Notes under the pieces: model-generated
What the model was told of the DNA's origin: nothing
Database searches by the model: none
What the model saw: the letters and a program-made list of their open reading frames with translations, nothing else
In this document: positions 2,386 to 61,552 of the stretch, one piece after another
How the letters are laid out: each line of letters starts with the position of its first letter
Position numbering within the stretch: position 1 is the stretch's first letter
Translations under genes and position numbers: made by a program
DNA from: an uncultured Spirochaetota bacterium
GTDB lineage: Bacteria > Spirochaetota > Spirochaetia > SZUA-6 > Fen-1364
Assembly (NCBI GenBank): GCA_963734545.1
Contig: CAVTHO010000010.1
Span: forward strand, 64,001-128,000
Direction of reading: 5' to 3'
Length of the DNA: 64,000 nucleotides

Positions 2386-2504
2386 GGATCGCGCGGCGGC
2401 CACTCGCCTCCATTTGATCCGGGTATTGCGCCAGTTCTACGGCAACTGAGCGCTGGCCGGTGCTCCGGCGTGGCCCGGCGGCGACGCACAGCGTATCTTG
2501 GTGC

Positions 2505-4725: not shown

Positions 4726-5149
4726 ACGACGAGATCGCGAGGATACCGTTACCGCTTCCATGGGCAGCGCGGGCTGCGTCCCGGCCAAGGGCTTCCTCCT
4801 GGAGCGGACCAGCACCGCGAGCGCGACGCAGTTGACGAGGGAAGCAGCCGCTGCCAGCGCCGACTGCTTCGGTCCCGTCCGCCCGTAGAGCTCGACGAGT
4901 CGCTACTTGCCCCTGTCGTTCGGCTGCAGGTTGGCAATGGTAAAGCTGCGCCCGCCCTGAGTGTTTCGCCTGTTCCGTGACGAAAAAACGCATGGCCGAG
5001 TGGACCGTCCGGTGCGGGTCGTGCCAATCGCGGCGCCCTCCGGGCGATACCTTCGCATCCGCAGATAGTCCTTCCGCAAATAGGTGTTTTCCCCGATACT
5101 CCGCGCTCCCCCGGCCGTATATCCTGTCCGGGAAAAAGGAGAGACAGTC

Positions 5150-6775: not shown

Positions 6776-6818
6776 CTGAAGCGCCACCTCGTTGTCGATG
6801 CCTCGTGGCCGCGGCTGC

Positions 6819-17587: not shown

Positions 17588-20500
17588 CTAGCGGGCAATT
17601 TCGTCAAGCCACCAGGTCAGGCGCGCAAGGACCTTCTTCCGCAGGTCGCTCGGGCAATTCTGTCCCTGGTCAGCCTGGTCCCTCCCGGGTCCGCCGTCCA
17701 GCGTGTCGTGCCCGTCCCCGCCCACCAGCCAGTCATCGCCCGCGCCGCCTCGCAGGATGTCGCTCCCGTCCTGCCCGAACAGGATGTCATCCCCATCCCC
17801 ACCCTGCATGGTGTCCTGGTCGAAGGGGCCACCCGGGCAGCCCTCGTGCCTGCTCAGGTACAGCCCGCTGCCTCGTTCGCCCGTGGAGGCCCAGAGCCAG
17901 AAGCTCTCCTGGGCCAGGCCCATGTCCAGAAGGTCTTCGGCCAGCTCCTCCGCGTCGTATCGCACCCGGCAATAGCTCTTCTGGCTCAGTCCCTCGCCGG
18001 CAACCACCAGCGGCGCAGCGAATGCGGCGCTGTCCCCGAAAGCCAGGTCATTTCCCGCACCCGCGTCAAATAAATCGTTTCCAGCGGACCTGGCATCCGC
18101 CAGACCGTCCCCGCCATGCTCGTCACTGCAGCAGCTCCTGCCACCGTCGTGATCGCCGCGGGAATCATGACCCGAGTCGTAGTGGTTGCCCCAGAAATCA
18201 TGGCCCCAGTTGTCGTGGCTGCCCCAGGAATCATGGCCCCAGTTGTCGTGGCCGCCCCAGAAATCATGGCCGCAGTTGTCGTGCCCGCCCCAGCCGCAGC
18301 CGTTGTGCCGCGGAGCAGGTGACTCGTCAGGCACCAGGGTGATCACCGGGACGAGAGAGCTCCACCGGTCGCCCACCAGGACGTCGTCACCCTCCCCGCC
18401 GGCCAGGGAATCGTTGCCCGAGACAATGAGGTCGATATGATACACGAGATTGATCCGCGGCTTCCTGCCGGCTGTCACGGTCACGAACGTCTTTCTGAGG
18501 TCGTGGGAAACATCGTCGATCTCCCGCAGCACCCCGCCTGCCATGCACGCGATGTCCTCCGCCTCCTCCACGAAGTCATCCAGGGAGAGCACCAGGCCCA
18601 CGGGGACCGTCAAGGATGGCGCCGCTATCGTCATGTCGTCGCCCACCAGGAAGTCCCTGCCCGTGCCGCCGTCGAGCTGGTCACAGCCGATCCTGAAGGT
18701 ATGGTCCACGACGGTGTCGCGGGAAGCGAAGCAGCCGCCATCAACCCACTTGCCGATCGCCTTATCTATCCGATCCAGGAAATGTGACAGCTCATCGATC
18801 GCCGCGGAGAGATCCTGCCCCATTCCCGTCGCAGTTCCCAGAATCCCCGCGGTAACCTTGAGCGTGGGGGCGAAAACGACCCGGTTGTCGCCCACCAGGA
18901 CATCGTCTCCGGCTCCGCCGCGGAGCGTGTCATTGCCGGCAACGAGGCCGAGGTGGTGCGCCACGTCCGTGACGAACGAGGCCAGCGGCGCCAGGCGGAC
19001 GCCGTCGAGACGATCGAGAGTGTTCGTGCTCGGGAGAATCGAAAGGTCGCAGCCGGCATGGGTAAGGACGGCCGCGAAGGGATCCACGGCCTGGCCGGGA
19101 ACAACCGAGAGCACCGGCACGATCGTGGTGCCGGCGGCGGCCACCCTGATATCTCCCGCCGGCCCGTTCCCCGCGTCGCCCGGGATCAGCAGCAGCCCGC
19201 GGAGAACGTTCGGCAGCGGGGAAGCGGAAGCGACCTGCACCGCGTCATCGCCGACCAGGACGTCGGCGTCGTCACCGCCGTCCAGCAAGTCGTCCCCCGC
19301 GCCTCCGACCAGGAAATCAATGCCCAGCCCGCCGGTGAGCCAGTCGTCCCCACGGCCGCCGAACAGGGCATCGTCCCCGGCGCCTCCGTCCAGGACGTCA
19401 TTGCCGTCCGCACGCAGCGATACGAGGATGAGCTCCGTCTCCCACTTCTGGCATCCCCACGCGTTACGGACGAGGTGTCGGCTCCCGTCGGCGTTGTAGG
19501 CGCCGACCACGAGCACGAGGTCAGCGTTCAGAAGATCGGAAATCACGTCCGGGTCCAGGTCACCCCACCAGAGGCTGCTCGGGTGATACACGCCTGTGAT
19601 GACGCCCACGTCCGTCAGCAGGACATCCGAGTGCCAGGAGCCGTTCGGATCGAGCCGTGGCGTCCCATCCGGGTTGTATGCGGGCGTGATGATCCCCACG
19701 TCGCCCAGCAGGACATCGTTGCCCTCGCCGCCGCTCACCTCATCGCTTCCCAGCCCCGCGACGATCAGGTCATCACCCGCGTTCCCGCTGATCAGGTCAT
19801 TCCCTGACCCGCCCGCGATCCTGTCGTTGCCATTGTCACCCGTAATGACCAGGTCTGTCGTCACAACGGCCGCGTCGATAACGTCGCACCCTCCCTCACC
19901 GTGGATGATCAGGGCGATGGGGTCCGTCTCGGTGACGGTGACCAGGTCATCTCCCTCTCCCGACCACAGCGTCGTTGTCGTGCCGATGCTCTCGTGGGTG
20001 GAGCGTACCTCGATCGTGTTTCCGCCCGAGCCGCATTCTATGTTGATCCCGCCGCCGAACGTGCCATCCGTGGCCGCGTAGTATATATTCGCGGGCGAGA
20101 GTCCCGTGAGGGAGCTGCTGGTGATGACGACGTTCGAATCCGGCGTCCCGTCAGCCTCGTCACTCACGTTCAGCGAGTTGACTCCTCCCCCTGCTTCGAT
20201 TTCGAGCACCCCGAGGATGCCGTCCAGCGTCCCTCCGTTGGCAGGAGCATCGGAGGAGACATTGACTGTGTCGTTTCCAGTGCCCGTGACCATGCGCGTG
20301 TGGGCCGACGTGGATTGGACATTGACCGTATTCCCGCCCGAGCCCAGGGCGATGTTCAGGCTCTCCACGCCGCTGTAGCCGATCCCGTCGCTCATCCCCA
20401 GGCCCGTGATGCTGTCCGCGGTGAGGGTGAGGCTGTTTGGCTCGCTGTCTCCGCTGTCGTCCACGTTCAGGGTGTCCTCGCCCTCCCCGCCGATGAGGGT

Positions 20501-20692
20501 CAGGGGGGCCAGGATGAGGTTCACCGTGCCGCCTGCATCAGGCGCCATGGAACCGACGTTGATCGTGTCGGCCCCCGGCCCCGCGTTCACCGTAGTTGCT
20601 GAGCCGATGGACTGGATGTTCAGTATGTCACCGCCCGAGCCCAGGGCGATGTTCAAGCTCTCCACGCTGCTGTAGCCGATCCCGCCGCTCAT
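17588..20692 (-). CDS. C-terminal segment of the giant protein: RTX Ca-binding repeats, His/Trp-rich repeat, probable T1SS signal
   Basis: Many GGxGxDxL nonamers (GGAGDDAL, GGLGIDFL, GGDGDDIL, GGPGRDQA); ends DLRKKVLARLTWWLDEIAR*. Confidence 0.88.
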   Translation of the reverse strand: MSGGIGYSSVESLNIALGSGGDILNIQSIGSATTVNAGPGADTINVGSMAPDAGGTVNLILAPLTLIGGEGEDTLNVDDSGDSEPNSLTLTADSITGLGMSDGIGYSGVESLNIALGSGGNTVNVQSTSAHTRMVTGTGNDTVNVSSDAPANGGTLDGILGVLEIEAGGGVNSLNVSDEADGTPDSNVVITSSSLTGLSPANIYYAATDGTFGGGINIECGSGGNTIEVRSTHESIGTTTTLWSGEGDDLVTVTETDPIALIIHGEGGCDVIDAAVVTTDLVITGDNGNDRIAGGSGNDLISGNAGDDLIVAGLGSDEVSGGEGNDVLLGDVGIITPAYNPDGTPRLDPNGSWHSDVLLTDVGVITGVYHPSSLWWGDLDPDVISDLLNADLVLVVGAYNADGSRHLVRNAWGCQKWETELILVSLRADGNDVLDGGAGDDALFGGRGDDWLTGGLGIDFLVGGAGDDLLDGGDDADVLVGDDAVQVASASPLPNVLRGLLLIPGDAGNGPAGDIRVAAAGTTIVPVLSVVPGQAVDPFAAVLTHAGCDLSILPSTNTLDRLDGVRLAPLASFVTDVAHHLGLVAGNDTLRGGAGDDVLVGDNRVVFAPTLKVTAGILGTATGMGQDLSAAIDELSHFLDRIDKAIGKWVDGGCFASRDTVVDHTFRIGCDQLDGGTGRDFLVGDDMTIAAPSLTVPVGLVLSLDDFVEEAEDIACMAGGVLREIDDVSHDLRKTFVTVTAGRKPRINLVYHIDLIVSGNDSLAGGEGDDVLVGDRWSSLVPVITLVPDESPAPRHNGCGWGGHDNCGHDFWGGHDNWGHDSWGSHDNWGHDFWGNHYDSGHDSRGDHDGGRSCCSDEHGGDGLADARSAGNDLFDAGAGNDLAFGDSAAFAAPLVVAGEGLSQKSYCRVRYDAEELAEDLLDMGLAQESFWLWASTGERGSGLYLSRHEGCPGGPFDQDTMQGGDGDDILFGQDGSDILRGGAGDDWLVGGDGHDTLDGGPGRDQADQGQNCPSDLRKKVLARLTWWLDEIAR

Positions 20693-23600
20693 CCCCAGGC
20701 CCGTGATGCTGTCCGCGGTGAGGGTGAGGCTGTTTGGCCTCGCCGTCTCCGCTGTCGTCCACGTTCAGGGTGTCCTCGCCCTCCCCGCCGATGAGGGTCA
20801 GGGGGGCCAGGATGAGGTTCACCGTGCCGCCTGCATCAGGCGCCATGGAACCGACGTTGATCGTGTCGGCCCCCGGCCCCGCGTTCACCGTAGTTGCTGA
20901 GCCGATGGACTGGATGTTCAGTATGTCACCGCCCGAGCCCAGGGCGATGTTCAGGCTCTCCACGCCGCTGTAGCCGATCCCGTCGCTCATCCCCAGGCCC
21001 GTGATGCTGTCCGCGGTGAGGGTGAGGCTGTTGGGCTCGCTGTCTCCGCTGTCGTCCACGTTCAGGGTGTCCTCGCCCTCCCCGCCGATGAGGGTCAGGG
21101 GGGCCAGGATGAGGTTCACCGTGCCGCCTGCATCAGGCGCCATGGAACCGACGTTGATCGTGTCGGCCCCCGGCCCCGCGTTCACCGTAGTTGCTGAGCC
21201 GATGGACTGGATGTTCAGTATGTCACCGCCCGAGCCCAGGGCGATGTTCAAGCTCTCCACGCTGCTGTAGCCGATCCCGCCGCTCATCCCCAGGCCCGTG
21301 ATGCTGTCCGCGGTGAGGGTGAGGCTGTTTGGCCTCGCCGTCTCCGCTGTCGTCCACGTTCAGGGTGTCCTCGCCCTCCCCGCCGATGAGGGTCAGGGGG
21401 GCCAGGATGAGGTTCACCGTGCCGCCTGCATCAGGCGCCATGGAACCGACGTTGATCGTGTCGGCCCCCGGCCCCGCGTTCACTGTGGTTGCTGAGCCGA
21501 TGGACTGGATGTTGACCGTATTCCCGCCCGAGCCCAGGGCGATGTTCAGGCTCTCCACGCCGCTGTAGCCGATCCCGTCGCTCATCCCCAGGCCCGTGAT
21601 GCTGTCCGCGGTAAGGACGAGGCTGTTTGGCTCGCCGTCTCCGCTGTCGTCCACGTTCAGGGTGTCCTCGCCCTCCCCGCCGTTGAACACAACCCCACCG
21701 ATGGGAACGGGGATCCCTCCGACAAAGTCGACAGTCAAAGTGTCCCCGTCGTCGGACCCGTTGAACGTGAGGAAAGGCGCCTCAGCGGCCGTGATGATAT
21801 AGACGACCGTTCCGTTCAGAGACACCTGGATATTCCCTCCGTCGCGGAACAGCCGGAAGGTGTCCTGCTCGCCATCATTCATTCTCGGGCCGGCGTCGAT
21901 GACGGAATCTTCCCACACCGTGACAGCGAAGGACTGTTCGTCACTGGCAGCGGGGTCGGCGTTGTCCGTGACCCGCACGGTGAAGGTGTACACGAAGGGC
22001 CCCTGTGCCTCCGTGGGAATCCAGGTCAGCTCACCGGTGGAGGCGTCGAGGAAAACGAATGCCGGCGCCTGGTCCAGGTGGAAGGTCAGGACGTCCGTCC
22101 CGTCCGGGTCGGTCGCGACGATTGTCAACCGCAGCTCGACGCCTTCCGTGGCAGACTGATCACCGATGAAACCCAGGACCGGGGCATCGTTGACGCCCTG
22201 CACGATCACCACGACCCGGGCTGTCGCCGTCCCGGCCTTGCCGTCGGAAACGGTATAGGTGAAGGCGTCTGAGGCGGATTCGTCGAAAGCCAGATAGTCG
22301 AACACGCCGCGGGGGTCATAGGTATAGGTGCCATCACCGTTATCCGTCACGGTCCCCAGGGTCCCGGTGGTGTCAATGGAAACGATGGAGAGGATGTCGC
22401 CCGGGTCGGGATCGTGGTCGTTGGAAAGGAGGAAAGACGCCTGGATGATCAGCGCCGTGTCCTCGTCCGTCAACAGTTCGTCGTCCACCGCCATCGGCAA
22501 TGACTCCACCAGGACGCTGAGGGTGCCCTCGAACACCGCATCGTCCGCCCCGGACATCGTCACGGTCACGACATAGGTACCGCCCAGCTCCCACGTGTGG
22601 GAGATATCGGCCGTGACCGGGGTGTCCGCGCCCTCAGTGAAGGGCACGGTCCGGGTTTCGGTGGGCGAGCCATCGCCGAAGTCGAAGACCAGCCGGGCGT
22701 CCGCCCCGTTCATGGAATAGGACCCCAGGGGATCGCGGATGTCCACGTGGATGAGCGCGGGCCTTCCCTCGTACGCGCCGCCGGTGAGGGTCGGCTCCAC
22801 CACGAGATAGTGCTCGATGCCGGAGACGACCCCGCCGCTCAAGGCGGTCTCGACCCGCTGACCGATGATGACGCGATCCACGAACAGGTCCCCGCCGGCC
22901 TCGAGCTGAAGCATATTGGAGTACCGGTCGGCGGCCAGGAGGACGCGCGTGCTGACGATGTTCCCCGGGGAATGCACAATGAGCGATCCGTCGCTCACCG
23001 TCGCATTCCTGAGCTCGATGGACCCTGCGGCATTGATCTCGAGATCGCCCGCACCGCGCACGAAGGCCTCGATCCGGCGGACGTTCACGTCCGCGCGGAA
23101 CCCGTTCTGGGCCGTCATCTTGAGCGTATCCGCGCTGATGAGGGCGCCGACAGCCTGTGAAATGGTCCCGGCATCCAGATCGATGCGGCTCCCCTGAAGC
23201 GCCGTTCCGCCGAGGGTATTCAGCCGCAGCTCGTTTGTCGCCGTCAGCGCGATCCCCGCGCCCGAAGACTCGGCCAGGGAGCCCCGGTTCGTGAAAATGA
23301 TGTTTTCAGCACGCAGATCCACCGCGCCGCGGGCAACGAGGGCGGCGTCAACGATGATGTCCCGCTCTGCAACGATGTTCCACGGTCCCTGGTAATCGGC
23401 GCCGAGAAGGACGCTGAGGTTATCCCGGGAGACAAGGGTCCCCACCGGCCAGGCGCCCGTGTCGACCTGGATCGCGAGCCCCGCCGTAAGCTCGGCCTGA
23501 CCGCCGGTGAGAAGAGCCCCCGCTGCCTCCCGGATGCTCCGCGCCGAATCGAGGCGGATGGCCCCGTCGTTGTTTCCGGTCGAGCCCCGGGCCGTCAGGG

Positions 23601-26600
23601 CCCCGAGGACCAGGCCCCCGTCTCCACGGGAGACGATGTCAATGGCGTCGGCCTCGACCAGGGAGGCGACGATGCCGGCATCGGAGACGATGGACAGGGC
23701 CCCGGTGTGCGTTCGGACGTTCTCCAGCACCAGCGTCTTGCCGCTCCCGGCGAGATCCTTGTCCGACACGAAGAGGCTCTTCCCCGCCTCCACGACCAGC
23801 TCTTCCACGTCCGTGTAAAGGACCGCCTTGCCGGAGGAAGACGTGGCGACCGTCAGCCGCTTGCCCTGGACCAGGCTGCCCGGGTCTCCCATGACCGAAC
23901 CCAGCCCGGAGGCGAGACGGACATCGGCGCTGCCGACCACGGCTCCCGACAGGAGCATGACACCGTCCGGAGAGATGATCCGCACGAAGTCTGTCCCCGA
24001 CAGGCTCGCGCCCAGGATCAGGTCCGTGCCGGTTTGAATCAGGATGTCCCTGGCCGTGAAGGCGCTTCCGGCCTTCAGGCCTTCGATCGAGCCCGCCGCC
24101 AGGAAGGAGATCGAGCCCTGCGCATCGAAGGAAACATCCTTCATCGCGATGTCGCCGCCCGTGACGATGGAAACGGGCAGGAGGCGCAGGCCGTTGTGCG
24201 TCACCTCGACGAACAGGTCGGGAACGGTCTCCACCTCCGCGTTCGAATAGGTGGCGGGATCCGCAATGAGGATCTCTGCCCTCGGCACCTCGGTGTAGAC
24301 GGGGGTGAGCTCCGCGAAGCTGACCAGGATATCCTCGGGTTCCAGCTTCGCGACGCCATGGTCAGCGAGGGTCTCGCCCGGGTAGAGGACGATCAACCGT
24401 CCGTTCGGCAGCAGCTGGGTCTCGAGCGTGGAGAGCACGGTATCGAAGTTGACGATCCTTCCCGTGGTCTCATCCAGGAAATAGAGGCTTTCCTCCCCGG
24501 CGCCGGCTTCTGCCGACGTCGTCAGGAAGCGGTAGCGGTAGCTGTCCACGGCAAAGAGAGGGCTCTGGATGGTGACATCACGATCATTTCCAGTGTCCAG
24601 CCAGGTTTCCTTGTGAGTCTCGGTAGTCCACTGCAGGAACCGCCGCACGGTGAAAGCGCCGTCAAAGAGGAAGAGGTCCGCGGGCCGTTCGCCGGATTCA
24701 TTCCAGGCGTAGAGGCGGCTCCCCAGGGACCCGTCCCGATTCTGCCGATAGTCAACGAACACCCACGCGCTGCCGCTGTTCTCCAGTCCCCTGGTCCACG
24801 TGTAGAACACATCGTCGCTCGGGTCGTCCGGCGTGCCCTTCGTGTCACGGTAGAACGTGCGGCCGGTCCCGTCCTCCTGGTAGATGAAGAGCCCGGAGAA
24901 CTCGTCCTGGGCAACGAGAACGGCCTCGTCCTTGGTGGGGGCATCGAGCGTCACCCCGTCCAGCAGCTCGTCCACGGGGAGCTTCCGCAGCCTGTCCTCG
25001 ATGGAAAGACGGCCCGACTTCAGGCTCTCGATGCTGTCCTTGAGCGACTGGATCCGCACATCGCCCAGGCGCAGCTGGTCCCTGAACCCTTCCAAGGCGA
25101 CGGTAAGGGCGAGCCGGTTCTGGGAGAAGGCCAGGTCGTGCGTGAAGACCAGGCGTTCGGCCTCGATCGCCTGCGCGTTGATCTGGGCTGCCCCGAGATC
25201 GGACCGCTCGGTCTGCTTCGTCTGGAGGATCGCGGCCAGGCCCTCTTTCAGCCCCGTCTCCCGCAGGTCCAGCTCACCCAGGCGGCTGTCCAGTCCCGCT
25301 TTGTTCGCCGTCAACGTGATACGTGCGGTGTTCAGATCCCCCAGCTCCTTGGTCAGAACGCTCAGCGCCCCGTTGAGGTTGGAGCGCTCAGCAAGGTCGG
25401 CCTGATAGACCAGGTTAAGATCGGCGCGCTGGTTCTGCAGAGTGGAGATCTCCCCCGTGACCCGGGTTGCCTCGGACGGAAGCGAGGCCACGGCCTGGTT
25501 CAGCAATTCCTCGAGGCTGAGCTGCTGGCTCAGAAGAGCGGTCTGGGAGGACTGAAGCTCGGCGAGCGAAGCCTCCTGCAGGCCCAGGGCGGCGAGGGAG
25601 GCCGAAAGCGAATTCTTCTGTGTCGTGAGAGTCGTCTCCTGCGACTGAAGGGCTGCGATGTCCGTTTCCAGGGACTGCTTCTGCGCCTGCAGCCCGAGGA
25701 TCGTCGCCTTTTCCGTCTCGAGAGCCGTCTCCTGGCTCCGGTAGCCGGAGAGAGCCGAGGAATAGTCGGAGCGAAGGGCGGCCAGGGCCGAGTGGGTACC
25801 GGGCAAGGTCGCGTCCAGCGGCTGGTTGGCGCCCTTCTGCGCGAGAGCGGTCCCCACCTGGGTCAGGTCCGTGCGCATGCCGGAGACGGACGCAAGGATG
25901 TCGCGGAGGTCCTCGAGGTCGGCCCGGGTGAGGCCGTCCAGCATGGCCGGGGTGATATCGGTCAGGGACTTCGTCTGTCCCTTGTACTGGATCTGGCCCA
26001 GGTTGAAGGTGCTGAGAGACAGCTTTCTTCCGTCTGAAAGGGTGAACTGGAGGGTCTCGAGGTCGAAATCGTTGTTGAAGAGGGTCGCTGCGGCGGGCTC
26101 ACCCGGCAGGATCGACCGCGGAATTGCTCCGATCCTCTCGTTCACCTGCCCGAGCAGGGCGTCCACCTGGTTCAGGTTGCCGATCCCGGTCACCAGGGTC
26201 TGGTAGGCGACCTTTTGAAGCTGCGTGTTCACCGCGCCGATCTGACTGGAGGTGGAGCTGATGGCGGACCCGACTGAGCTCAAATCGCCTTCCACCAGGC
26301 TCAGGCTCCGCTGTCCAGACAGGCTGGTCGAAACGGTGCCCAGGGTCTGCTGATCCGAGAGGATGGACGACTGCACCGACGTCAACTGGGACTGCGTGAA
26401 ATCGAGGTCCTGCCGCAGCCCGATGCCGGCCTGGATCGTGCCCAGCTGGGTTTGAAGCGCGGTCAGTCCCGTCCGGGTGATCAGGTCCCCGACATATCCC
26501 CGAAGGGTTTCGCCCAGCACATTCGAATAGCCCGAGAGGTCGCGGAGAGACTGCTCGATCACGGCGAGGTCGGTCACGCCGTTCAGGGACGAGATGATGG

Positions 26601-29600: not shown

Positions 29601-32600
29601 CCACGTTGCCCGCCCCTGCGATCGCGCCCGGGACCGCAGTGATCAAGGAGGCTGTTTCGCCGATCAGAACGCTGCCGGTCGCAGAGATATCGATGGAAGC
29701 CGTTGCCTTCAGGTGGACGATGTCATAGATCTTCGGCTCCGCCGGCATTGCCCCGCCGACGGTCACGTCGCCGCCGACAGAGGTAATGGCGATGGCGCCG
29801 TTCTCTCCCTCCGCGCTCAGGTTGGCCCGCACCTCCACGTTCGCCCCGGAATGAATCGTGATGGTCCCCCGGGCCGTCAGGGTATCCAGATCGAAGATCG
29901 TCAGGTCCATGGGACCGTCGGCAGGAACAGCTTCACTGTCCCACACGGGCCGCGCCTGGACCACGGGCTCGAGCTTCCGGTTCGTGACCTGCTCGAACTT
30001 GATGACAGGGACCATGCTCGCGATGGTCTCGTAGCGGGGCCGCTTGTCCACGATGTCATGGGCGTCGGTGAAGACAAGGTAGGTGATGTCCGACCGGATG
30101 TCCTTGACTTCCTTCCATTGAGTCTTCAGCTTGTAGATGTAGTCGGTCTGCGTTTCGCCGACCGTGTAGGGGGCGGACCAGTAGGGATCTCTCTCCAGAA
30201 CGGCGATGAGACGGGAACCCGGATCCGCGTCGTTCCAGGTGCCGTTTGTCCACATTTGCAGGAAATCCTCGTCCCCGCCGGAATTGTTCGGCTCTCCCGA
30301 GGAGAAATTGCCGTATCCCCACGCACTGCCGTCCGAGAGCCTGCCGCTCCCCTCGCCGTTCACCCAATCCAGGGACCAGTTGGTGTGGCTCGTGCTGTTG
30401 ATGTTGTACCCGCCGAGCCACACGGTGCTCGAGATCAGGCTTTGGACGTAGTTGTTTTCCCCGGAGTCGTTGATGACGACCATGTGCCAGCCGTCTCCGA
30501 AAGCCGCGGCCAGGTCGTAGGCCTCGTACCAGGTGTAAGAACCGGCTGTCACGTAGTAGTCGCGGCCGTTGTATATCCTCTGCTCTCCAACGGTGCCCTC
30601 GGACCGGGTCCGAGCGGCGATTTCTTCCAGCGTCGCGCCGATCTGGGCGACCGCGAGGATGTTGTTGCCCACGTCTTCCTGGCCGTACACCCGGCGGCTG
30701 TTGACATCCAGTCCATAGTCCCAGTTGCCGCCGTCGAACCCCGACAGGTTCACGCCGTTATGGCCGGCATTCTGGGCGACGAGATTATCCAGCAGGTTCG
30801 TGTCGAGGTTCCACGCGTCCTTGGGGTCCCAGACCACCTTGACCGAGTTGTCCATGTCGAAGGCGGGCTGCAGGACGAATCCCGCCTGGGTCACACCGTA
30901 CAGGTAGTCGAAGTCGGACACCGCCATCAGGCCGGTCCCGGAGAGGGCAATGCTCTGCGCCACGGCGAGGTTCACCAGGCCGGTGTAGAGGGCGGGGACG
31001 TAGGGGAGCCCTTCCGAGGGCGCGCTGCGGCCGTCCTTGATGCTGTACTGCTCGTAGGCGGTGTACGCGTCCGTCCAGTTGGAGTCGGGCAGCGCGAGAT
31101 AGGTGACCACCCAGCGAGCCGCGCTGTCGTCGTAATCATCCAGCTTCCAGACGGCTCCGTCCACCGCTGCCGGCTGCGTCCCCGAGACGAAGGTCGACCA
31201 CTCCTGGGTGTACTTGAGCTGGGCCACTTCCCGCTTGTATCCCACCGTCTCGTCGTACGTATCGACGTTGCCCACGTACTGGAGCTTCTTGGCGTCGGGT
31301 TCGGTCCTGTCGTTGCCCAGCGTGGTCACCGTGTAGGTCTCCCACCATTCCCTGGGCGCGCGCAGGAATATCGAGGTTCCGTCGTCCAGCGTGTACGACA
31401 CCACGGCCCGGGCAGCGCCGGAGAAGTTCAGCTCCCAGACGTTGGCAGTGGGGATGCCCTCGATGTTGCGGTTGATCTTCCCCAGGCCTTCCATGGGCGA
31501 GTAGATCTTCTCCGAGTGGGTGTCGAGGAGGACCTGGTCCTCCCGGGCGGAGAAACTGGCCTTGTAGAGGGCCTTCGCCGGATTGCTGTAGTCCGCGTTG
31601 TAGTCCCGGCCGGCGATGTAGAACAGGTCGGCCAGCGCCTGGACCTGCTGGGGAGTCGGATTTTCCGGCAGGAGATGCGCGGGAGGCATGAACCATTGCT
31701 CGGCCGTCATGCCCGCAGTCAAAGGATCGTAGGGCCGGAACTCGGGGAACCAGAAGTCGAAGTATTTCTTGTACACGTACTGGGTGGTCACGGCCGTCCC
31801 GACGCCGACAGTGCCCACACCGGCGGGAACCGTCGCCTTGAACTTGCCGTTCACGAAGACCCCCGGCACGAACTCCGTGCCTCCGGTTTCCATCTGGTAG
31901 AAGAGCCCCTGCGCCTGGACGGAGGAGAGGGCCTGGGCGACCGTAAGGCCGGCGGACCCGGACGCGGCTGCCGTGAAGGTGCCGATGCCGTCGGCCAGCG
32001 AAAGAATGCCGCTCACCATTTCCGTCGCTCCGAGGACCCTGGCCTGCTCCAGGGTGAGCCCGTCGAACCTGGAATAGGTGGATGCGGCCGTGGCCATGGG
32101 CACAGCGGCGGGCAATGTCACGGTCATCCTGAACCCGGAGAGGAACCGCAGGTCGAACAGCTTCTTGTAGTGCAGGTGATCCATGATGGCATTCAGGCGT
32201 TCGGTATCTGTCAGGTCGCCCCAGCCCTTGTACTGCGTCTCGCCGTCGTCCGTGCCGGAAATCACCCTGTCCACGAGACCGGTATGGAGCTCCGTGTAGG
32301 TGTGGGCGGTATAGAGCTGCACGTCCTGCACCGCTGCGGCTCCCTCCACGGTCAACGCCGCGCTCATCGCCCCTCCGCCCATCAGCGACGCGGGCACGTA
32401 CAACGGCGGGTTCATGACTCCTCCCGTTGTGCCCGCCTGAGCGTCAAGAACCACGGCGTCGAGCGCGGCCCCCTCCGCCAGCGGACGGCCGAGGTCCAGG
32501 ATGAGGCCGGAGTAGTTGATGACCTCCGCTATCGCGTAGAGCAGGGCTTCATCCTCCACCAGGAGCCTGACGCCCGAAACCGGGTCCCGCATGTAGACAC

Positions 32601-50600: not shown

Positions 50601-53600
50601 CGGTAGAGAGATCCACCCCGAAGTCGAACCTCAAGGCCGTGGAGACGGACACTGCGAGGTCGACCTCGGCGTCGAGCGCGAGCCCCACGCCGCCCAGGTT
50701 CTCCGCGATGGCGAGGGTCACAACGTCGGCAAAGGAATAGGCCCCGTTGAAGGAGATTCCCAGGTGGCTGCCGGCCATCGTCACGGTCAGGAAGTCACCG
50801 CCCACGCCGGTCGAAATCCCCGGCAGTGTCGGGACCCAATGGGCGGTCAGGAAGGACGCCAGGCCGTTCCAGATGTCCGCCGGCGTGACATCTCCCGTGG
50901 CCACCGAGCCCGGCCCGATCCAGGACACCGTGTCGAGGTAGGCGAACACATGGGTGTCGATGTCGAGAAGGGCCTCGATCCCATTTCCCGCGCCGAAGAA
51001 GCTGTTCAGGTCACGGTCGATCCCGGGGATCGTCAGGTCGAAGAACCCCGAGCCGAGCAGGTCCTGCTTCAGGCCCCGAATGAGCCCTGCCAGGTCTTCC
51101 AGGAGTCCCCGGATCACGCTGTCCGCCAGGTTGCCGAGGGCGCCGGCGATGTCGGGAGTCGTGATGATCACGGGATCATAGGGGCCCGGGTTGAGGTTCA
51201 CGATGTGCCGGAAGACCTCCTCCAATCCCGTGTTGATGCTCCCCTGATAGAGAGGATTGGTCCGAATGCTCAGATCCGGCGACAGGGGTATCACGGTCCC
51301 GAACACGTCCAGGGTCAGGGGCAGAACGACTTCCAGGCCGCCGTTCACGCCCGCGAACTGGACGTTGTCCAGGAGGTTCTCCGTGGCGAAGTGGAACCTC
51401 CCGTCCGACAACGGATCTGCCGGATCCAGCACGAAGGCAATGGTAACAAAGTCCGACCGGTCGGCGGGATCCGTCGCCTCCGGGTTCGTGGACGCGTCCC
51501 CGTCGGCGTCCATGGTCATCGTTCCCGCTGTTACGCTCAGACCGATGGAATCGAAAATGCTGAACGACAGGTCGAGGTTCTCCGCGAGCAGCTTGAACCC
51601 GGCATCCACGCGCGTGCCCGTCTGCTCGGCGTCGTTCCAGTCGTAGAGGAACTTGTCGGCCGACCCGCCCGATGCCCGGGGCCCAAGGTCAATTCCGGCC
51701 TCGATTCGAACCCGGGCGAATGCGCTCACGCGGACGGTCCCGCTGCCCTCCAGGGCCACCAGGTCGTCGATCCCTTCCAGGCCGGGGAGACTCCCGCCGA
51801 CGAGACCCTTGAACAGACCGAGATCGAAATTGAAGGGCGTGCTTTCCTCCACGTCCTCTTCCAGCTTGAACCGCAGGCGAAGGACTGTGCCCTCCATGAA
51901 GACGGCGAAAACTGCCCCTGCTGTCTCGAAGTTCAGACCCAGCTTGTTCAGGATCAACCCTATCAGTTTCTGGATGTCGTTCTCCGGGTTGTACAGCTCA
52001 CGCTCCACGGCGTTCACGGCATCATTCATCATTCCGATGAAGGCCAGGATCTCGCGCGGGGATTTGTCGATCAGGGGGATCCTGAGGTCCTTGAAGGCAT
52101 CGTAGATCGGGGAGTTGGGATCCGTGACCCAGAAGGGAAGCCGGTCAAAAGCCTTGAACGCGTAATCCCGGGCCCTCAGGATCATGGACAGTATGTCCTC
52201 GATATGGAGGTACTGGTAGAAAGTGAAAGCAGCGGGGAGGTTTGTCAGGTCGAGGGTCATGTAGCCGGGGGCGGTCCGGGCACGGGCCAGATCGCTCACC
52301 ATGAGCGTGACTCCGCCATCGTCCGACGCGGGGATCCCGCCTATGCCCGTGTTCACCTTGATTCCGAGCAGCGTCGCCTGCGCCTCGCCGGTCACAGCGC
52401 CGTGAAGGATGGAAGCGACATCCAGCCCCGAGAGGGACGAGATCAGGAATTGCCGATCGCCGGCGGTCGCAAGGTCACCGTCCTGGTCGGGCACCAGGGT
52501 CTGCGACACGTTCACCCGGACAAGGCTTCCCGGTGCGTATCCCAGTGTCACCCCCACGAATCCGAGCCGACCCGCGGCCTCGAAGTCCGTCACCTCGAAA
52601 GATACCGACCGTGTGAGGGACGCCGCGTCCACGGAGTACGTCAGCTCCCCTTCGGTCGGACCGCCGGTCTCCCCGTCAAAATCCACGACATAGTCGAGCT
52701 GTCCGGACACCTCGACCAGGAGGTCTGCCAGCGCCGTTGTCCTCAGACCCACCAGGTCGAGGCCGTAGTCACCTGAAAGGTCGAGGGCCGCACCGTTCAA
52801 GCCGAAGTATTGCAGGGCGTGGCTGTCCACCTCGGCGTCCCCCACAAGACCCAGGCTCACGAATGACGCCAGGCTGTCCAGGTCGTTCAGGTTCAGGAGG
52901 CCGCGGTCGCCGAGCTCGTTAAGGGAGAAAGACGGGGTCTTGAGATCTGCTGAGACGAGCAACCCATGGGCAGCCAGGCTCCTCAGAGAAACCAGTTCCT
53001 GATCGAGAAGGGCGTCCTTGTCCACGGTGGCCGAGGCGCCGAGATAGGAGGGATCCACCACGCCCGCCTTGACCAGATCGCTGAACCCGGCAAGTCCGAG
53101 GGAGAGAAGGCTCCCGGCCCCGTTCAAGAGAACCTCGTCGTTTCCGGCGCCCGTGATGACGGCGGCCTCCTGGAGGATTGCCCGGTCGAACATCCGGGAC
53201 GAGGCCACATCGTCCAGCGACCGGGCCGTCACAGACCGGCTCAGGTCGCCGAACCCGACCAACCCGTCCGCAACGAGTCCCTTCAGGGACACGAGTCCGG
53301 ATCCGAGCAGCGCCTGGAGGGACACCATACCGTCCGGTCGGATCAACCCCAGGGCGTTCAAGGCCGCCGTTGTGACCAATCCCGAGCCCGTGAGAGCGGC
53401 AGGGCTCAAGGCCTTGTTATTGAAGCGGCTCTTGCCCACGAGGCCTTGATCCACCAGCTGGGGAAGCTCCGCGCCGTGGCGAATGATCAGATCGCCGGGA
53501 TTCAAGAATCCCCAGTCGATCAGGTCCCCCAGGTAGATCGTCTCCAGGACATCGTAGAGAAACACCTGATGCGCGCTGATGTAGTTGTTGAGGTCCCCGT

Positions 53601-56600
53601 TCTCGAACAGGACGGATTCCTCGAGCTTCACGATATCCAGGCCCATGCCGGGGTCAGCCAGGTCGGCGGCATCCACGAAGTCCCGGCGAATCAAGGACAG
53701 GAGCGTCACGCCCTCCAGGTCCAGCGCCACCAGGGTCCGCACGGGCACCGCGGCACCCAGGGTGTCGGGGACATCCACCGCGAAGGCAGTCTCGATGTCG
53801 GCCGCGTTCAAACCGACGTCGACGAAATCATCCAGACCGACAAACTCGTAGCCGACATACTCGGCGAGGGTCAGGTCGTAGAGAATGGAGCTCAGGAGCG
53901 TGCTGAGAGGGACCGTGCCCAGGTGAACGATGCCATCGAACTGACCGTCCGTGAAATGGGCGGATCCCTCCAGGTCGCTTTGCTCGAACACCTTGTTGAC
54001 GAAGTCCTGCCGGGAAAGAAGGCCGCAATCCACCAGGGATGCCAGCGTCACGTGACTGTCGGCAAGAAGGTCCTCGAGGGAAACGAAGCCATCGGTGCCC
54101 ACAAGATCCTGCTCAACGATGTACTTCTTTCCCACCACGCCGGAATCCAGGAGCTTCTCCAGGGGTACATGCCCGTTCGCTGCCAGGTCCCCGGCGTCCA
54201 CGAGCCCCGCGTGCACAAGCTGCCACAGGCTGACGGCGCTCTGCTTGTAGAACTGGGCCGGGTCCACCAGGCCTTTCTCGACAAGGGCGTCAATGGAAAC
54301 CAGGTTTTCAGCGAGGAATGTTTCAAGGTCTATGGGGCCTGAGTCACCGTATCCGAGAGTTGAAAGGGCATTGCGAGCGACGATATCCGAGGTCAGAAGG
54401 TCCGGCAGAGGAAGGGTGGGTACGAGTAGAGGCAGCGCCGAGGGCGGCCCGCGAGCAAGCTCGTGCAGGCTCACCATATCCAGCGCCAGCAGGTCCGACA
54501 CGCGCACATAGTCCGGCGCCCCTCCCTCGCCCTCCTGAACCAGGTTATTCTGCTCGAGCTCCCGGATCGAGACCTTCGCCGCGGCCAGAAGGTCGTCCAC
54601 GGTGATCGTCGCCGCGCTCAGGTCCACGTCGTCGGCCGTCACGAGACCGGCAGAAACCAGGTCCTCCATGGTCAGAAGGCTTCCACTCAAGAGATCGGAG
54701 ACGGCGACAACATCGTTTCCCGCGCTGTCCTGTGTCACCAGCCCGTCCAGGAGGGCCAGCTCGAGGAGGTCCGACTCAAGGAGAGCCTGCCGGTCCAGGC
54801 TGCCCTGCACGAAAAGATCGGCAAGCAGCACTTCGGGCAGGTCATCGTTCAGGTCATTCACGGTGATGAGCCCCACCCGGACCAGGTCTTCCATGGTGAC
54901 GGAGGTGTTGGCCAGCAGCAGGGCCGCGGTGACCCGGTCACCGTGACGAATAAAGCCCAGGCCGTCGAGCTGTTCGGTGATGGTACGGTCAAAACCGAAC
55001 AGGCGCAAATCCGCGGCCGGAAGGTCAGCCAGGCGACCGCGCTCAAGCAGTCCCTGGTCGACCAGGTCTCCCATGGTCAAAGAGCCGGCGGACACGATTT
55101 CGGGTATGGACCTGCGTGTCGTCATGCTCTTGTCGATGACCCGGGAGCTCAGGAGAGCGGCTTTATCCGCTTCACCCAGCGGACGGAGGTTGTCGTGGGT
55201 GAGGATCTGGAAGTATACGAGCTGGCTCAGGGTGATGGGGCTTTGCTCCAGCAGCGCACCGAGGTCGATGATGGAGCCCGGGCCGATCAGCCCGCCGTGC
55301 GCCGTGATCGCGGTGAAAAGGGAAGAGGCCTTGGCCATGATGTCCGAGGTGCGCAGCTTGTCCAGCAGCACCTCGGCCGGCAGGATAAGATTGCTCCGGG
55401 CCAGGTCTCCCAGATCGGCGAGGCCAGAATCGACAAGGGCGCTCAGGTCGATGTCCTCGATGTTCAGCGCGGAGATACCCACGAGCCCCGCGTTCACAAG
55501 ATCGTCGATTCCCGCCAGACCGGAGCCCAGGACAGCCCCCAGGTCGAGGGACTCCGTGGCCAGGGCGGACACGTTGAGCAGGCTTTCGCCGACCAGCTCG
55601 GCCACGTTCGTCAACCCCGATCCAAGAAGGGACGAAAGGGAAAGCTGGCTCAAGGTCAGATTGCCGGCGGAAACAAATCCGGCCCCGATCAGCTCTTCCA
55701 GCGTGATTACCCCGGAAGCGGCCAGCGCGTGCAGGGAAACGCTGCCGGAATTGTTGAGACCCTTGTAGTCCAGCTCGAACTGGGTTGCCAGCCCTGCCGC
55801 AACGAGACTCGCCGTGCTCAAGGTCGCGTCCGCGAAATCAGCGGCCTGGACCAGGTTCTTCTTCACGAGCTCGGTTAAGGTGGCGACCCCGCGGGAGAGG
55901 ATGCCGCTGACGGGCAGGAGGGTTGACGGAGTGAAATCGGAGGCGGCAATCAATCCTTCCCGGACAAGATCATTGAGCTGGACAGCGGCCCCGGAAATCA
56001 GGTTCTGGATGTTCACGAGGGCCGCTCCGGCAAAATCCCCGGCCTGCAGCAGCCCTTCGCTCACCAGGTCCCCCAGCGCCACCACGCCCGAGGAGAGAAG
56101 CTCGGTCAGCGACAGCTTGTCCAGGCCGATGCTCCCCAGGTTCAGCAGCCCCTGGTCGAAAAGGCTCCCGAGCGAGGTGACTCCGCTGCTCAGGAGATTC
56201 TGCAGGTCCACCAGATCCGTGGTTTCTATCATGCTTGTCAGGTCGATGCCGTAGTCGGCGAGCCTGGCCGCCAGGGCGTTGATGTCGCTGACAAATCCCA
56301 GCTTCGCGATAACACTGTCATAGGTAACGAACCCGGCATCCACCAGGTCCCCGAGGGTGACGAGCCCGGAATCTATGAGCTCATCCATGTCCACCGTGCT
56401 GCCGTAGGAGGCCAGGCTCCGTGTGCCGATGATCCCCGCGTCCGCCAGCGCGTTCAGGTTCAGGCCGCCCCAGTTCGCGACGGATTCAGGAGAGAGCAAC
56501 CCCAGCTCGGCAAGCCGGGAGAGGGTGACGAATCCATGGTCAAGGAGGTCATCCATGTCCACCAGGTCGCTGACCTGGACGAGGCCTTCCTCGACCAGGA

Positions 56601-59600
56601 GGTCCACGTTGACCCAGCCCAGGGCGTCCAGATCGCGAAGCCCCAGCTGGTCCAGCTCAACGTCGAAAGCCAGGGGAAGAGTGAGCGCCTGGGCGGCAGG
56701 ATCGTATGTGGCGGCTTCCCCCGACTTGAGGAGACCGGACGCATCCACGGCAGCCACGAAGTCCTGGAGTGTCTCGACGCCCTCGATATCGAGCTTCGAG
56801 AGCATCGCCGCTTCAAAAGCCGCGCCGAGATCAACCACCTCGGACAAGGAGCGGCCCAGGAACGGCACGGCGACGTCGAGCCCGGCGGAGCCGGCAGAGG
56901 CATCCAGCCAATCCAGGAAATCCGCGATGCCGCCAACTGCCGCGGAAAGGTCGAACCTGCCGAGGCTCGCAAGCTGGGCAAAGTCTCCGGAACCTGTGAT
57001 GGCGGGATCAGCCCCGCCGAAGAGCGTCCCGCTCACATGGATGGTCGGCCGCGCGCTCCCGCCGCCCGTGACGTCGGCCTGGTCCGCCAGTGCCGCGTAC
57101 ATCGGGAGGACAACGTCGAGGGTGTTGGCGGTGAGGCCAAAGGGATTCGACGTGACTGCGCTCGGCGTGAATACGAATTGATCTCCGCTCAGCGCAACAT
57201 CACCGCACACGTTCAGGGTCGCTGTTCCCAGGGTGCTGCCGACGCCTCGTCTCCCGACACTCGTCTCCAATGTTCCCACCCGGGCAGCGGAAAGCAGCTC
57301 CGTTGCACTCGCCCCGGAATCAATGTGCAGCCCGGTGAGGATGAACTGCGTCCCGCCGCCGGCCAGGTCCACCTGCAGCGTGAAGTCCACGTCACTGTCT
57401 CCGACAATCGGAACGGCGATTGTTCCTGTCAGGTCCAGCCCCAGTGCCTCGCCATAGCGGCTCAAGTCAAGGACAAGCTCTTCGTTCTTGATGCTCAAGT
57501 CCGTGCCGGTGAAGTGGATGCTGAGCCGGCCGTCGCTGACCCCTACAGTGATTGTCTTCGTGCTGTTGGAGAGGGTCGGGAGCCAGTTCGTTTCCAGATG
57601 GAGCTTCAAGCCGCTCAAGGTGGGCACGCCGCCCGTTGCGATGTAGTCACCGGCCGGAAGGAGACCGGCCGCGGCGCCCTCCCCGGCAGGATGCAGATAA
57701 GGTCTCAGGTAGGATTGAACGTAGTCACCGATGGACAACAGATTGTCCATCTGGGCCAGCTCGCTGAGGGAGAGACCGACCCCCGGGATCTCCCGCGTCA
57801 AAGCCTCGTCGCCGCGCGCATTTACCCCGAGGGCGGTCACGAATTGCCCCAGGGACTCGATGTACGTGGCCATCCTGGTCAGTCCTATCTCAGCCGGCCG
57901 GAACTTGACCACCAGGCTCTCGCCGACAGCCGGAATGACCTTGACGTCCGCGGAAGGCACGGCGCTGCGAACGGACAACGCAAGGGACTCGTCCTTGACC
58001 AGGACCTGGGCTACTGTTGCCCCGCCGGCTCCCCCGCTCAAGGCAGATATGAAGGACGCCTTGACGGCGGCATCGGTTACGCCAATCGTCTGGAATTCCA
58101 CGGTCAGTCCGGGCTGGGACTTGAACCCCGCAAGCTCGTCCCCCGCAGAATCGGTCTGCGCCAGGCTGCTGACTCTCAGTATCGTGGCATGGTACACCGT
58201 CGCTGCTGCTTCGAAGGCGCTGTTCAGCCAGTGCACACCGTATCCCGAAGCGCCGGCGCTCACGGTATGGCCCGACGGCGAGATGGCAACCCAACGGGGA
58301 GCGTTGACGTGGTTGAACCACTCCACGGTCAACAGGGCGTCCAGCGAAAGCCTGTACTGCGAATAGTCGGTGGGGTCAGCGGGGAAATCCAGCTGAATGC
58401 CGATGGCCCGCTGGAACGCGGCAAAAGAGGACGCTGTCAGGTCCTGGAAGATGCCGTCCACCTCGAGGAAGTTCCCCTGGTGGTCCCGGTACCCCAGGTA
58501 GTTGAGCCTTTGCTGGATCTTGGCGACCTGGAGCGGGGTCAACTGAGAGATCTGCTCCGGGCCGTCGATGGCCATGGCCCCGGTTCTGGAATCAGCCGGA
58601 CAACACGTCGAGGGGGACCCTCGTCTGGCTTTCCCCTGTCCCGTAGACTATCCAGATCCGTCCCTGGAATCCCGGGCTGCTCGCGCAATCGTCTCCGGGC
58701 AAGCCGTCCCGGACGCCGGGAGCCAGATAGAGCATTCCGCTCGTTGCGAAATCCACCGGCAGGTCCCAGTCGTTTCTGTCCGCGAAGATCACGTAGCCGA
58801 AGTTCACCGTTTGAACGGTCGCCGGATCGATCACCGTCAACGTCCAATCTCCGCGGAGCGGGTTTTCGCTCCTGGCAACGGTCACGACTTCTATGCCGCG
58901 CATCACCTCGAATGCGAGCTGCGTCTTGTCAAAGCTCGTCGCGTTCGTGCAATCCGACAGGTCGATCGGGATCATGTCGCCGGTCCGGGGGCCGTTGTCC
59001 GTGACGATCAGGCGGACACCCGGCTCAAGGGGCGCGGCCATTACGGCCAGCTCACAGCTCGCGCCAAGACCCAGCACAACGCCCATCTCGCGCATGACGA
59101 CCGAAAGCAGATCAGGGCGATCCATGGCGTCGGTCCCCTGGCTTGCCCTCAGGGCTGTTCCGAAGGGCTGGAGCGTAAACTCCAGATCGTCAGCCGGGGT
59201 TGGATCGACGAACCAGCCTGTCTGGCCGCCCCAGGGATCCAGCCTCACGCGACGGGCCGCTGCGTCTGTTGATGCAAGATCGTCGCCCAGGGCGGCGATC
59301 TGGAAAGTCACTCCCTCCAACAGCGTCCGAGGATCGGTTCCCGAAGGTCTGAAGGCACTCCACCGGTTGATGGCTTCCGCCACGATGGGGGAAAGCCTTG
59401 CGGCATTGATCGCGAACATGAGCCGCGCACACTGGATCGACGTCCCGGGGAGTTGTACGAGCTCCCCTGCAGCGTCGACTCTCACCACCTCACCCGTGCC
59501 GGGGACCCCGCCGAGGCCGGGCGCTCCGCCGCTGCAGTCGACATTCCCGCTTGTGATCGATCCGCTGTGGCTCGTCAGCGTGACCGCGCCCCCGTTCCCT

Positions 59601-61552: not shown

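Follow-up and report, generated by a model that had tools for sequence, protein, structure and literature searches.

The window analysed here is a stretch of 64,000 nucleotides from an uncultured Spirochaetota bacterium (C10:64001-128000 of the source assembly G000, which has 10 contigs and 5.14 Mb and is 89% complete and 4.9% contaminated). Positions 17588-61552 of its minus strand carry four collinear open frames, each offset by one base from the one before. The reading that we favour overall is that these frames encode one giant secreted protein of the LEPR-XLL type, that the breaks between the frames are errors, and that the protein leaves the cell via a secondary-SecA module; taken as a whole, we regard this reading as evenly balanced. 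That the four frames are a single gene is very probable, and we have considerable confidence that its product is extracellular, most likely as a cell-surface or matrix fibre with binding domains. We infer that it binds calcium, sugars and perhaps peptidoglycan. The gene is real, and it is a very large, unusually non-repetitive variant of a kind that is named in the databases and has remained unstudied.

The four frames, and the gene obtained by reading through them, are the following:
58592-61552, minus strand: frame 1, 986 residues
21223-58575, minus strand: frame 2 (the long frame), 12,450 residues; open from stop to stop from 58647
20628-21287 (21359 stop to stop), minus strand: frame 3, 219 residues (243 stop to stop)
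17588-20692 (20764 stop to stop), minus strand: frame 4 (the last frame), 1,034 residues (1,058 stop to stop)
17588-61552, minus strand: whole gene read through, 14,653 codons and a stop, provided that the assembly has the three extra bases in error

The end coordinates of the four frames modulo 3 are 2, 1, 0 and 2, indicating three one-base shifts, all in the same direction; a preliminary description of this DNA had listed the frames as collinear and offset by one base each. The GC content at third codon positions (GC3) of the long frame lies between 0.79 and 0.91 in all 25 tiles of 500 codons, and reaches 0.74 in the first piece of the gene and 0.82 in the last. Since GC3 is high in every tile and in the end pieces, the whole span is coding. 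The stop-free pieces, each read in its own frame, comprise 986, 12,419, 198 and 1,049 residues, which together with one broken codon make 14,653. The proposal of a single gene of about 14,650 residues with a LEPR-XLL N-terminus and an RTX C-terminus is supported by these stop-free pieces, and also by the first break and by the homologues described below.

Proteins of more than 10,000 residues are rare, and type I RTX adhesins are to our knowledge the only case in which the export of a 1.5 MDa polypeptide is understood. The gene suggests a testable pairing between an N-terminal tag of unassigned role, LEPR-XLL, and a secretion-like module from 2015 without a known cargo. Four lines of evidence agree on this pairing: the two are adjacent in two phyla, they co-occur, the module has a leader-binding fold, and an interface between them is predicted.

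A LEPR-XLL giant and its relatives

The LEPR-XLL motif occupies residues 7-19 of frame 1 (61496-61534, minus strand) and matches NF012209 with 17.9 bits against a cut-off of 17; in a genome-wide NF012209 search it scores 21.7 bits. Across 11 aligned LEPR-XLL N-termini, residues E10, L12, E13, R15, L18 and S19 are invariant. Judged by this sequence signature, the giant protein is a member of the LEPR-XLL family (NF012209, 'LEPR-8K') that is annotated in NCBI, and which we take, from its name and description, to consist of very long proteins that commonly have RTX repeats. To speak of an undescribed system was therefore too strong, the family being annotated by NCBI; the part of that claim that stands is that no functional study of LEPR-XLL proteins was found in the literature searched. 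In passing, a paper on a Vibrio genome (PMC10868602) notes one protein of some 8,000 residues with a LEPR-XLL N-terminus and C-terminal RTX, and proteins of more than 10,000 residues have been reported in several phyla (bioRxiv 10.1101/2023.11.21.568195).

Relatives were sought by a word-indexed search of proteins of 5,500-17,500 residues, in which 454 candidates were scored and 30 matched at E <= 1e-5. The best matches, P0001 (6,013 residues) and P0002 (6,204 residues), each give a single unbroken alignment that covers residues 534-6181 of the long frame, with 55-56% identity, and both start with a LEPR-XLL motif of their own. A scan of one genome per species gave three loci. The first, in a Gammaproteobacteria metagenome-assembled genome (MAG), is 69% identical and is itself in four shifted frames. 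The second, in Phycisphaerae bacterium SM23_30 (G042; locus L037), is an uninterrupted frame of 6,331 residues, limited by its contig. The third, in a further MAG (G041:C2:6767-48154), is a single uninterrupted frame of 13,796 residues with a LEPR motif near its start. It runs collinear to residues 254-11,979 of the long frame (38-47% identity in the four long collinear matches), so the parts occur in the same order in a homologue that is one gene, and not, as the preliminary description had considered, separate genes at the breaks. The G041 homologue is without the body of frame 1 and without the peptidoglycan-binding domain, and it ends in a dockerin-like segment, not in RTX. In G042 and G305 (a relative of the Phycisphaerae MAG), the 99-residue repeats, RTX and a further C-terminal domain of about 220 residues stand in one frame. 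Frame 1 had no match in any of the three genomes G041, G042 and G043; it is matched in 7 of 40 genomes of the genus and order of the source organism, at 31-42% identity.

The closest relatives of the best-conserved part of the long frame (residues 4060-4860) are 60-71% identical and lie in MAGs labelled Gammaproteobacteria and Phycisphaerae (L035, L036, L037), and most genomes of the source organism's own genus are without the giant gene. Because the distribution is patchy and the closest relatives are found in other phyla, lateral transfer is suggested; it looks as if the giant genes were either laterally transferred or placed in mis-binned MAGs.

A candidate export module

In the source assembly, a set of genes for OEP, GAF-HlyD, M50-HlyD and a second SecA (G000:C3:348320-356904) lies directly upstream of a LEPR-XLL paralogue at C3:357615. 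The M50-HlyD protein (gene at G000:C3:352757-354922) has 722 residues, with weak Peptidase_M50 (19.9 bits), HlyD_3 and PqqD rows, and the second SecA has 709. Kamneva, Poudel and Ward (2015) described this module as related to type I secretion and its role as 'completely unknown'; the main text of their paper names no cargo, and the terms 'RTX', 'giant' and 'large protein' do not occur there (PMC4452313). Among the carriers of the module the paper names the culturable Methylobacterium extorquens AM1. The pairing of the module with the LEPR-XLL tag was not found in print in the literature searched.

GAF-HlyD, M50-HlyD and SecA stand in this order in all nine loci that were fetched, and OEP was seen in five of them. 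A LEPR-XLL gene is immediately downstream of SecA in G000, G014 and G012, which belong to one genus, and also in G305, where the adjacent LEPR frame has 12,376 residues in DNA of 43% GC; the adjacency thus extends to four genomes in two phyla. Between SecA and the LEPR gene of G000, G014 and G012 there is, in addition, a conserved frame of about 209 residues without a Pfam family, 55-75% identical among the three (G000:C3:356908-357534, which is L043:12908-13534, plus strand; L048:11433-12449; L049:9876-10550). G305 has no such frame at this position.

The tag and the module also occur together. Among 40 relatives of the source genome, orthologues of the second SecA (SecA2; 59-91% identity) are found in seven and NF012209 in eight, with seven shared, and a phylum-wide sample yielded neither SecA2 orthologues (0/250) nor NF012209 (0/250). 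In the sample formed by G042 and 40 of its relatives, M50-HlyD was used as the marker because SecA marks the module poorly there: most of the relatives carry a short SecA of doubtful standing at 35-42% identity. M50-HlyD was present in 25 of these 41 genomes; NF012209 was found in 16, all of them among those 25, and in none of the 16 genomes without M50-HlyD. SecA2-like genes are present in G041 and G042, and the incomplete G043 has only a canonical-type match. Such counts show consistency, not proof. Most of the closer G042 relatives have two SecA-like genes, a short one of 533-801 residues and a long one of 765-1,337 residues whose match is confined to the second nucleotide-binding region. 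Possibly this is the Planctomycetes SecA domain rearrangement that is mentioned in PMC4452313.

The M50-HlyD protein offers a candidate for recognition of the tag. Its weak PqqD row (PF05402) covers profile positions 2-67 of 67 with 19.8 bits, and PF05402 is precomputed on the homologues P0194 and P0203, as PF02163 is on most M50-HlyD homologues. The site-2-protease motifs HExxH and NPxxxxDG (H215, E216, H219, N311, P312, D317) are invariant in 10 of 10 orthologues. A predicted model of residues 1-135 (pLDDT 81.4) found TbiB1 and lasso B1, each with its leader peptide, PqqD and heterocyclase RREs as its best Foldseek rows, with TM 0.66-0.68 by target and probability 1.00. When the structure of this domain was predicted in complex with residues 1-40 of the window protein, three runs scored 0.63, 0.63 and 0.68, and the best of three controls 0.11; a mark of this height is reached by 58 of 80 solved complexes and by 2 of 110 mismatched pairs, counts that apply only roughly because the prediction used alignments of our own. 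At least 47% of the contacts are common to the runs, and the pLDDT of the partner is 46-48. The predicted interface brings domain residues 44-63 and 89-104 against cargo residues 5-14, and the cargo stretch lies on domain strand 52-56 and helix 91-103. As a prediction, the complex model favours binding of the LEPR-XLL stretch by the PqqD-like domain.

The route that we propose would operate as follows. The LEPR-XLL stretch would be a leader, bound by the PqqD-like (RRE) domain of M50-HlyD that is encoded in trans, and the site-2-protease domain of the same protein would possibly clip it. The SecA-like ATPase would drive the N-to-C threading of the megadalton cargo, a type-I-like periplasmic conduit, made of the HlyD-type adaptors and the TolC-like OEP, would lead to the outside, and the RTX blocks would fold on extracellular calcium. 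By our reasoning, an N-terminal address would let export start before the chain of 14,653 residues is finished. Export of the giant protein by the secondary-SecA module is in our judgement close to an even call. The broader proposition, that LEPR-XLL is the leader of a distinct secretion route and that the module is the exporter of LEPR-XLL giants in diderm bacteria, is a tentative one, falling a little short of even. If it is true, LEPR-XLL giants would be the first cargo class of the module and the tag would acquire a function, and giant surface proteins would have a new way out of the cell, in relatives of the spirochaetes as well as in Planctomycetota and further phyla.

Several observations weigh against export by this route. 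The gene in the window is not beside the module, which lies on another contig, and the G041 homologue is not beside it either. One relative of the source genome (G006) has a weak LEPR match (19.9 bits, on a frame of 120 residues) without a SecA2 orthologue, and nine genomes of the G042 sample have M50-HlyD without a LEPR match; moreover, kin are not independent, and the presence of the module in the Phycisphaerae sample follows relatedness. The score of the PqqD row lies below the Pfam cut-off of 23.4, and no Foldseek row of the domain model reaches E 0.001 (E about 0.01). The complex score may be carried in part by likeness to solved RRE-leader complexes, the fold of the cargo partner is uncertain in the prediction, and the true ligand of the RRE domain could be a different peptide from a neighbouring gene.

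The preliminary description had taken the protein for a classical type I substrate, which would be exported C-terminus first by an ABC exporter with HlyD and TolC and be held at the surface like LapA or MpIBP. The RTX blocks would fit this well: PF00353 matches the C-terminal RTX in seven stretches with E 1.2e-37, and the last frame contains 14 GGxGxD motifs. An amphipathic helix could be formed by the roughly 28 residues that follow the final nonapeptide. The assembly has TolC-like OEP genes (PF02321 gives 20 matches, 19 over the cut-off), and six ABC exporters match the HlyB model with E 1e-82 to 1e-116. However, the HlyB, PrtD, LssB and HlyD models gave no match over a curated cut-off in the assembly, where at 89% completeness a missed gene is possible; the best rows scored 243 bits for TIGR01842 (cut-off 510), 389 for TIGR01846 (726), 323 for TIGR03375 (693) and 43 for TIGR01843 (209). 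The only ABC exporter beside an OEP adjoins a split AcrB gene and is part of an RND efflux set. The genes that flank the giant gene encode a WYL regulator, a phosphotransferase, an aldo-keto reductase and a chemoreceptor, with no secretion gene among them, and none was found within about 7-17 kb of the giant gene of G041. Furthermore, the protein has no long array of Ig-like extenders. Its C-terminus varies among homologues, being dockerin-like in G041 and followed after the RTX by the domain of about 220 residues in G042 and G305, and the conserved part is the N-terminal motif, which is found in all 11 aligned N-termini. With no exporter model at cut-off, none adjacent, and homologues that end in other C-terminal domains, we consider classical type I export unlikely. 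Of the expected type I C-terminus, the RTX repeats are present and the tail could be amphipathic, but this end is not conserved.

The three breaks

The favoured reading of one secreted giant requires that the three breaks be errors. They are located as follows:
58593, minus strand: break 1, a base missing from the contigs of runs X1 and X2
21333, minus strand: break 2, an extra G relative to in-frame repeat units
20738, minus strand: break 3, the same extra G, in an identical repeat copy
20334-21686, minus strand: tandem 297/298-nucleotide (99-residue) repeats, 4.5 copies; the units from 21354 and 20759 are identical copies of 298 nucleotides

For break 1, contigs of four public runs (X1-X4) were aligned to positions 57400-59800. 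One base at 58593 is missing from an X1 contig (220 nucleotides, one other difference) and from an X2 contig (89 nucleotides), and X1 and X2 are runs from two different studies. The base sits inside the stop codon of frame 1, and without it frame 1 continues into frame 2. The check by mapping of reads that had been proposed for this place (given then as 58596) is thereby answered with run contigs that fuse the two frames, and for a single-base indel short-read contigs are the better witness. The X3 contigs do not reach the break and the X4 contigs do not bridge it. The latter, which are about 95% alike, end at 58576/58582 in unlike loose ends and resume at 58660, so the linker between frames 1 and 2 seems to differ between strains.

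At breaks 2 and 3 the extra G lies exactly where the preliminary description had placed it. Because each falls in the middle of a 99-residue repeat, these breaks are not gene boundaries. A systematic consensus error would give an identical error in an identical context, as is seen at these two places, and the sequence context leads us to regard both as probable assembly errors. Overall, the three breaks are best described as single extra bases in an indel-prone assembly, which the run contigs establish for break 1 and which we infer for breaks 2 and 3.

Other genes of the same assembly are split in a similar way. In the window itself, the copper P-type ATPase gene copA (2460-4725, plus strand) is in two overlapping frames that match TIGR01511 positions 2-87 and 87-542, and an AcrB-type RND pump (G000:C5:442262-445314, minus strand) is divided into two overlapping frames at about profile position 566-571. 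Two further LEPR-XLL giant genes stand in collinear overlapping frames, of 3,154, 3,056 and 3,789 residues at G000:C8:6965-41352 (minus strand) and of 1,814 and 1,547 residues at G000:C3:357615-367521 (plus strand), and were probably split by the same kind of indel. Since copA, AcrB and two LEPR giants are split likewise, single-base assembly errors are favoured in the giant gene of the window too. A fourth LEPR-XLL frame, of 3,762 residues, lies at G000:C10:183841-195126. Long-read assemblies can thus fragment giant genes into several 'proteins'. Two separate observations concern the same assembly: the housekeeping SecA on contig C7 has a frame of only 473 residues, and a second 16S rRNA match (G000:C4:10929-13019) has 2,091 bases, compared to 1,548 for the copy on C8, with an insertion of about 540 nucleotides that is possibly an intervening sequence or intron.

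Two points count against the breaks as errors. X1 is possibly the source sample of the assembly, in which case it is perhaps not independent, and a real frameshift that was later copied by repeat duplication would look identical to breaks 2 and 3. If the frameshifts at 21333 and 20738 were real, the gene would encode a protein of about 13,400 residues without the C-terminal RTX, or be a recent pseudogene. A mutation followed by a duplication of the 595-nucleotide double unit would put the same extra G in two identical units, and two metagenome contig scans gave no close relative: a DNA pattern scan found no contig with the in-frame form of repeat units 1 and 3, and a scan at the protein level, for which the query was the last frame's residues 280-800, returned 16 loci, all with a best segment of 30-52% identity. 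However, two runs have contigs that speak against break 1, other conserved genes of the assembly are split likewise, a systematic consensus error is expected to recur wherever the context is identical, and the 1,049-residue piece after the last break is stop-free at a GC3 of 0.82, with its RTX domains intact. We therefore hold real frameshifts to be quite improbable. Four separate genes, as the frames stand, would suit the ATG that frame 2 has 17 nucleotides after the stop of frame 1 and the 986-residue product's own entry in the protein collection, where frames 3 and 4 in their ATG-started form have no entry as such. But this is very hard to credit, as frames 1 and 2 are joined in contigs from two runs, paralogues carry a frame-1-like N-terminus on frames of 3,154-3,762 residues, the starts of frames 3 and 4 fall inside a 99-residue repeat, and the G041 homologue is one frame.

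Domain anatomy and comparison with known systems

Pfam and NCBIfam recognise little of the giant protein, and most of its length, some 85%, is without a recognised domain. The parts that could be delimited are these:
58973-59410, minus strand: matrixin-like region, frame 1 about residues 715-860; Atlas 0.77 to Peptidase_M10 clusters (mark 0.9), a lead only
58393-58530, minus strand: PG_binding_1 (PF01471), long frame 16-61; 24.4 bits on a 560-residue tile (cut-off 23), Atlas 0.85
52825-56778, minus strand: Leu/Asp-rich, probably helical repeat region, long frame about 600-1917; from sequence and self-matches
43996-46398, minus strand: conserved module without a Pfam family, long frame 4060-4860; common to many RTX proteins of 2,000-8,000 residues
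43456-44007, minus strand: internal RTX block, long frame about 4857-5040; 7 GGxGxD motifs
35596-39228, minus strand: divergent internal repeats, long frame about 6450-7660; from self-comparison, no Pfam family
30196-30492, minus strand: C-type-lectin-like segment, long frame about 9362-9460; Lectin_C (PF00059) 21.7 bits against a cut-off of 22.6, borderline
24976-25878, minus strand: coiled-coil-like stretch, long frame about 10,900-11,200; weak SMC-type rows, low Pro+Gly, high AELKQR
21916-22722, minus strand: PKD, Cadherin_5/Big_9 and He_PIG cluster, long frame about 11,952-12,220; Pfam, with tandem-95 and VCBS rows
19187-19849, minus strand: RTX block, last frame about 306-526; profile matches and motif count
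18146-18293, minus strand: His/Trp/Asp/Gly-rich 11-residue repeats
17591-17818, minus strand: last RTX block and final 28 or so residues, last frame about 983-1046 (stop-to-stop numbering); the block overlaps the tail

Much of the domain mosaic that had been proposed earlier is recovered here in part. The peptidoglycan-binding domain is confirmed, with 21.8 bits on a tile of 4,500 residues as well, and the His/Trp repeats are present near the end. The Leu/Asp-rich repeat is visible in the sequence and in self-matches, with a shorter copy at about long frame 3165-3540, and its helical character is only probable. The lectin is borderline at the Pfam cut-off, yet phmmer against the PDB gives E 2.3e-6 to the lectin domain of surfactant protein D. 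The long coiled coil shrinks to some 300-400 residues that look coiled-coil-like. In place of two dead peptidases there is one matrixin-like lead; a motif scan found HExxH in none of the four frames, so a matrixin HExxHxxGxxH zinc site is missing, and the second peptidase was not found after the peptidoglycan-binding domain. The flagellin-IN-like repeats were not recovered, the best Pfam row being only FlgE D1 with E 0.078. In frame 1 there is, in addition, a haemagglutinin-repeat row that stays below threshold, with 17.6 bits (cut-off 21.5). Self-comparison of the long frame points to an ancient duplication, in which residues 244-800 match 2798-3379 and residues 1832-2399 match 3409-3988.

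When the conserved module at 4060-4860 was used as a query, 88,623 proteins matched at E <= 0.001, a count that is inflated by the RTX end of the query. Its AlphaFold model (pLDDT 79.9, pTM 0.53, 21 sequences) has N-terminal helices followed by long beta-hairpins. In comparisons of the 931-residue model by Foldseek and VIA-align, only the RTX/beta-helix end, residues 730-931, was matched (best Z 14.3, to 3p4g); residues 1-730 gave no clear structural match, with TM < 0.2 and one porin row at Z 7.5.

The strand opposite the giant gene contains many long open frames (21496-59004, plus strand), of up to 1,630 residues. These are not genes, because the high third-position GC explains them. Directly upstream of the giant gene, on the same strand, is the gene of the WYL/HTH_11/WCX regulator (61687-62640, minus strand), a possible regulator of the giant gene; relatives of it with 90% identity are found on short JGI contigs.

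Compared to the module described in 2015, the source assembly has the same gene set in the same order. The LEPR-XLL links, the PqqD-like domain and a carrier lineage related to Spirochaetales are additions of the present analysis; the host is probably a free-living relative of spirochaetes. The proposed recognition step resembles RRE-leader systems in two predicted respects: the modelled N-terminal domain of M50-HlyD is similar to the RREs of TbiB1, PqqD, lasso B1 and heterocyclases, and the predicted interface involves a short N-terminal stretch of the cargo. Another parallel is provided by the peptidase-containing ABC transporters that export bacteriocins, in which a leader-cleaving protease domain is fused to an export component. 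The protease domain of M50-HlyD is likewise fused to an export component. By contrast, the cargo here would be a protein of 1.5 MDa and not a peptide, the protease is of the membrane-embedded M50 type, and the motor is SecA-like and not an ABC exporter.

Like the LEPR-XLL family, the window protein has a motif that passes the cut-off, runs to thousands of residues and carries RTX, and several of its blocks recur in P0007, an NCBI-named member of 7,008 residues. It differs in being about twice as long, and in the addition of the 986-residue N-terminal part and PG_binding_1, which are absent from the closest collinear homologue.

The RTX adhesins LapA, MpIBP, SiiE and FrhA are giant type I substrates. 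They resemble the window protein in giant size, in RTX beta-roll blocks, in lectin- and cadherin/PKD-type domains and in a probable role at the surface or in adhesion. Unlike the LapA/MpIBP type, the window protein does not have tens to hundreds of Ig-like extenders; it has one PKD/cadherin/He_PIG cluster and about six 99-residue repeats. It differs further from the RTX adhesins by an internal RTX block at about one third of its length, by the absence of HlyB/HlyD-type genes at curated cut-offs in its assembly, and by a conserved tag that is located at the N-terminus.

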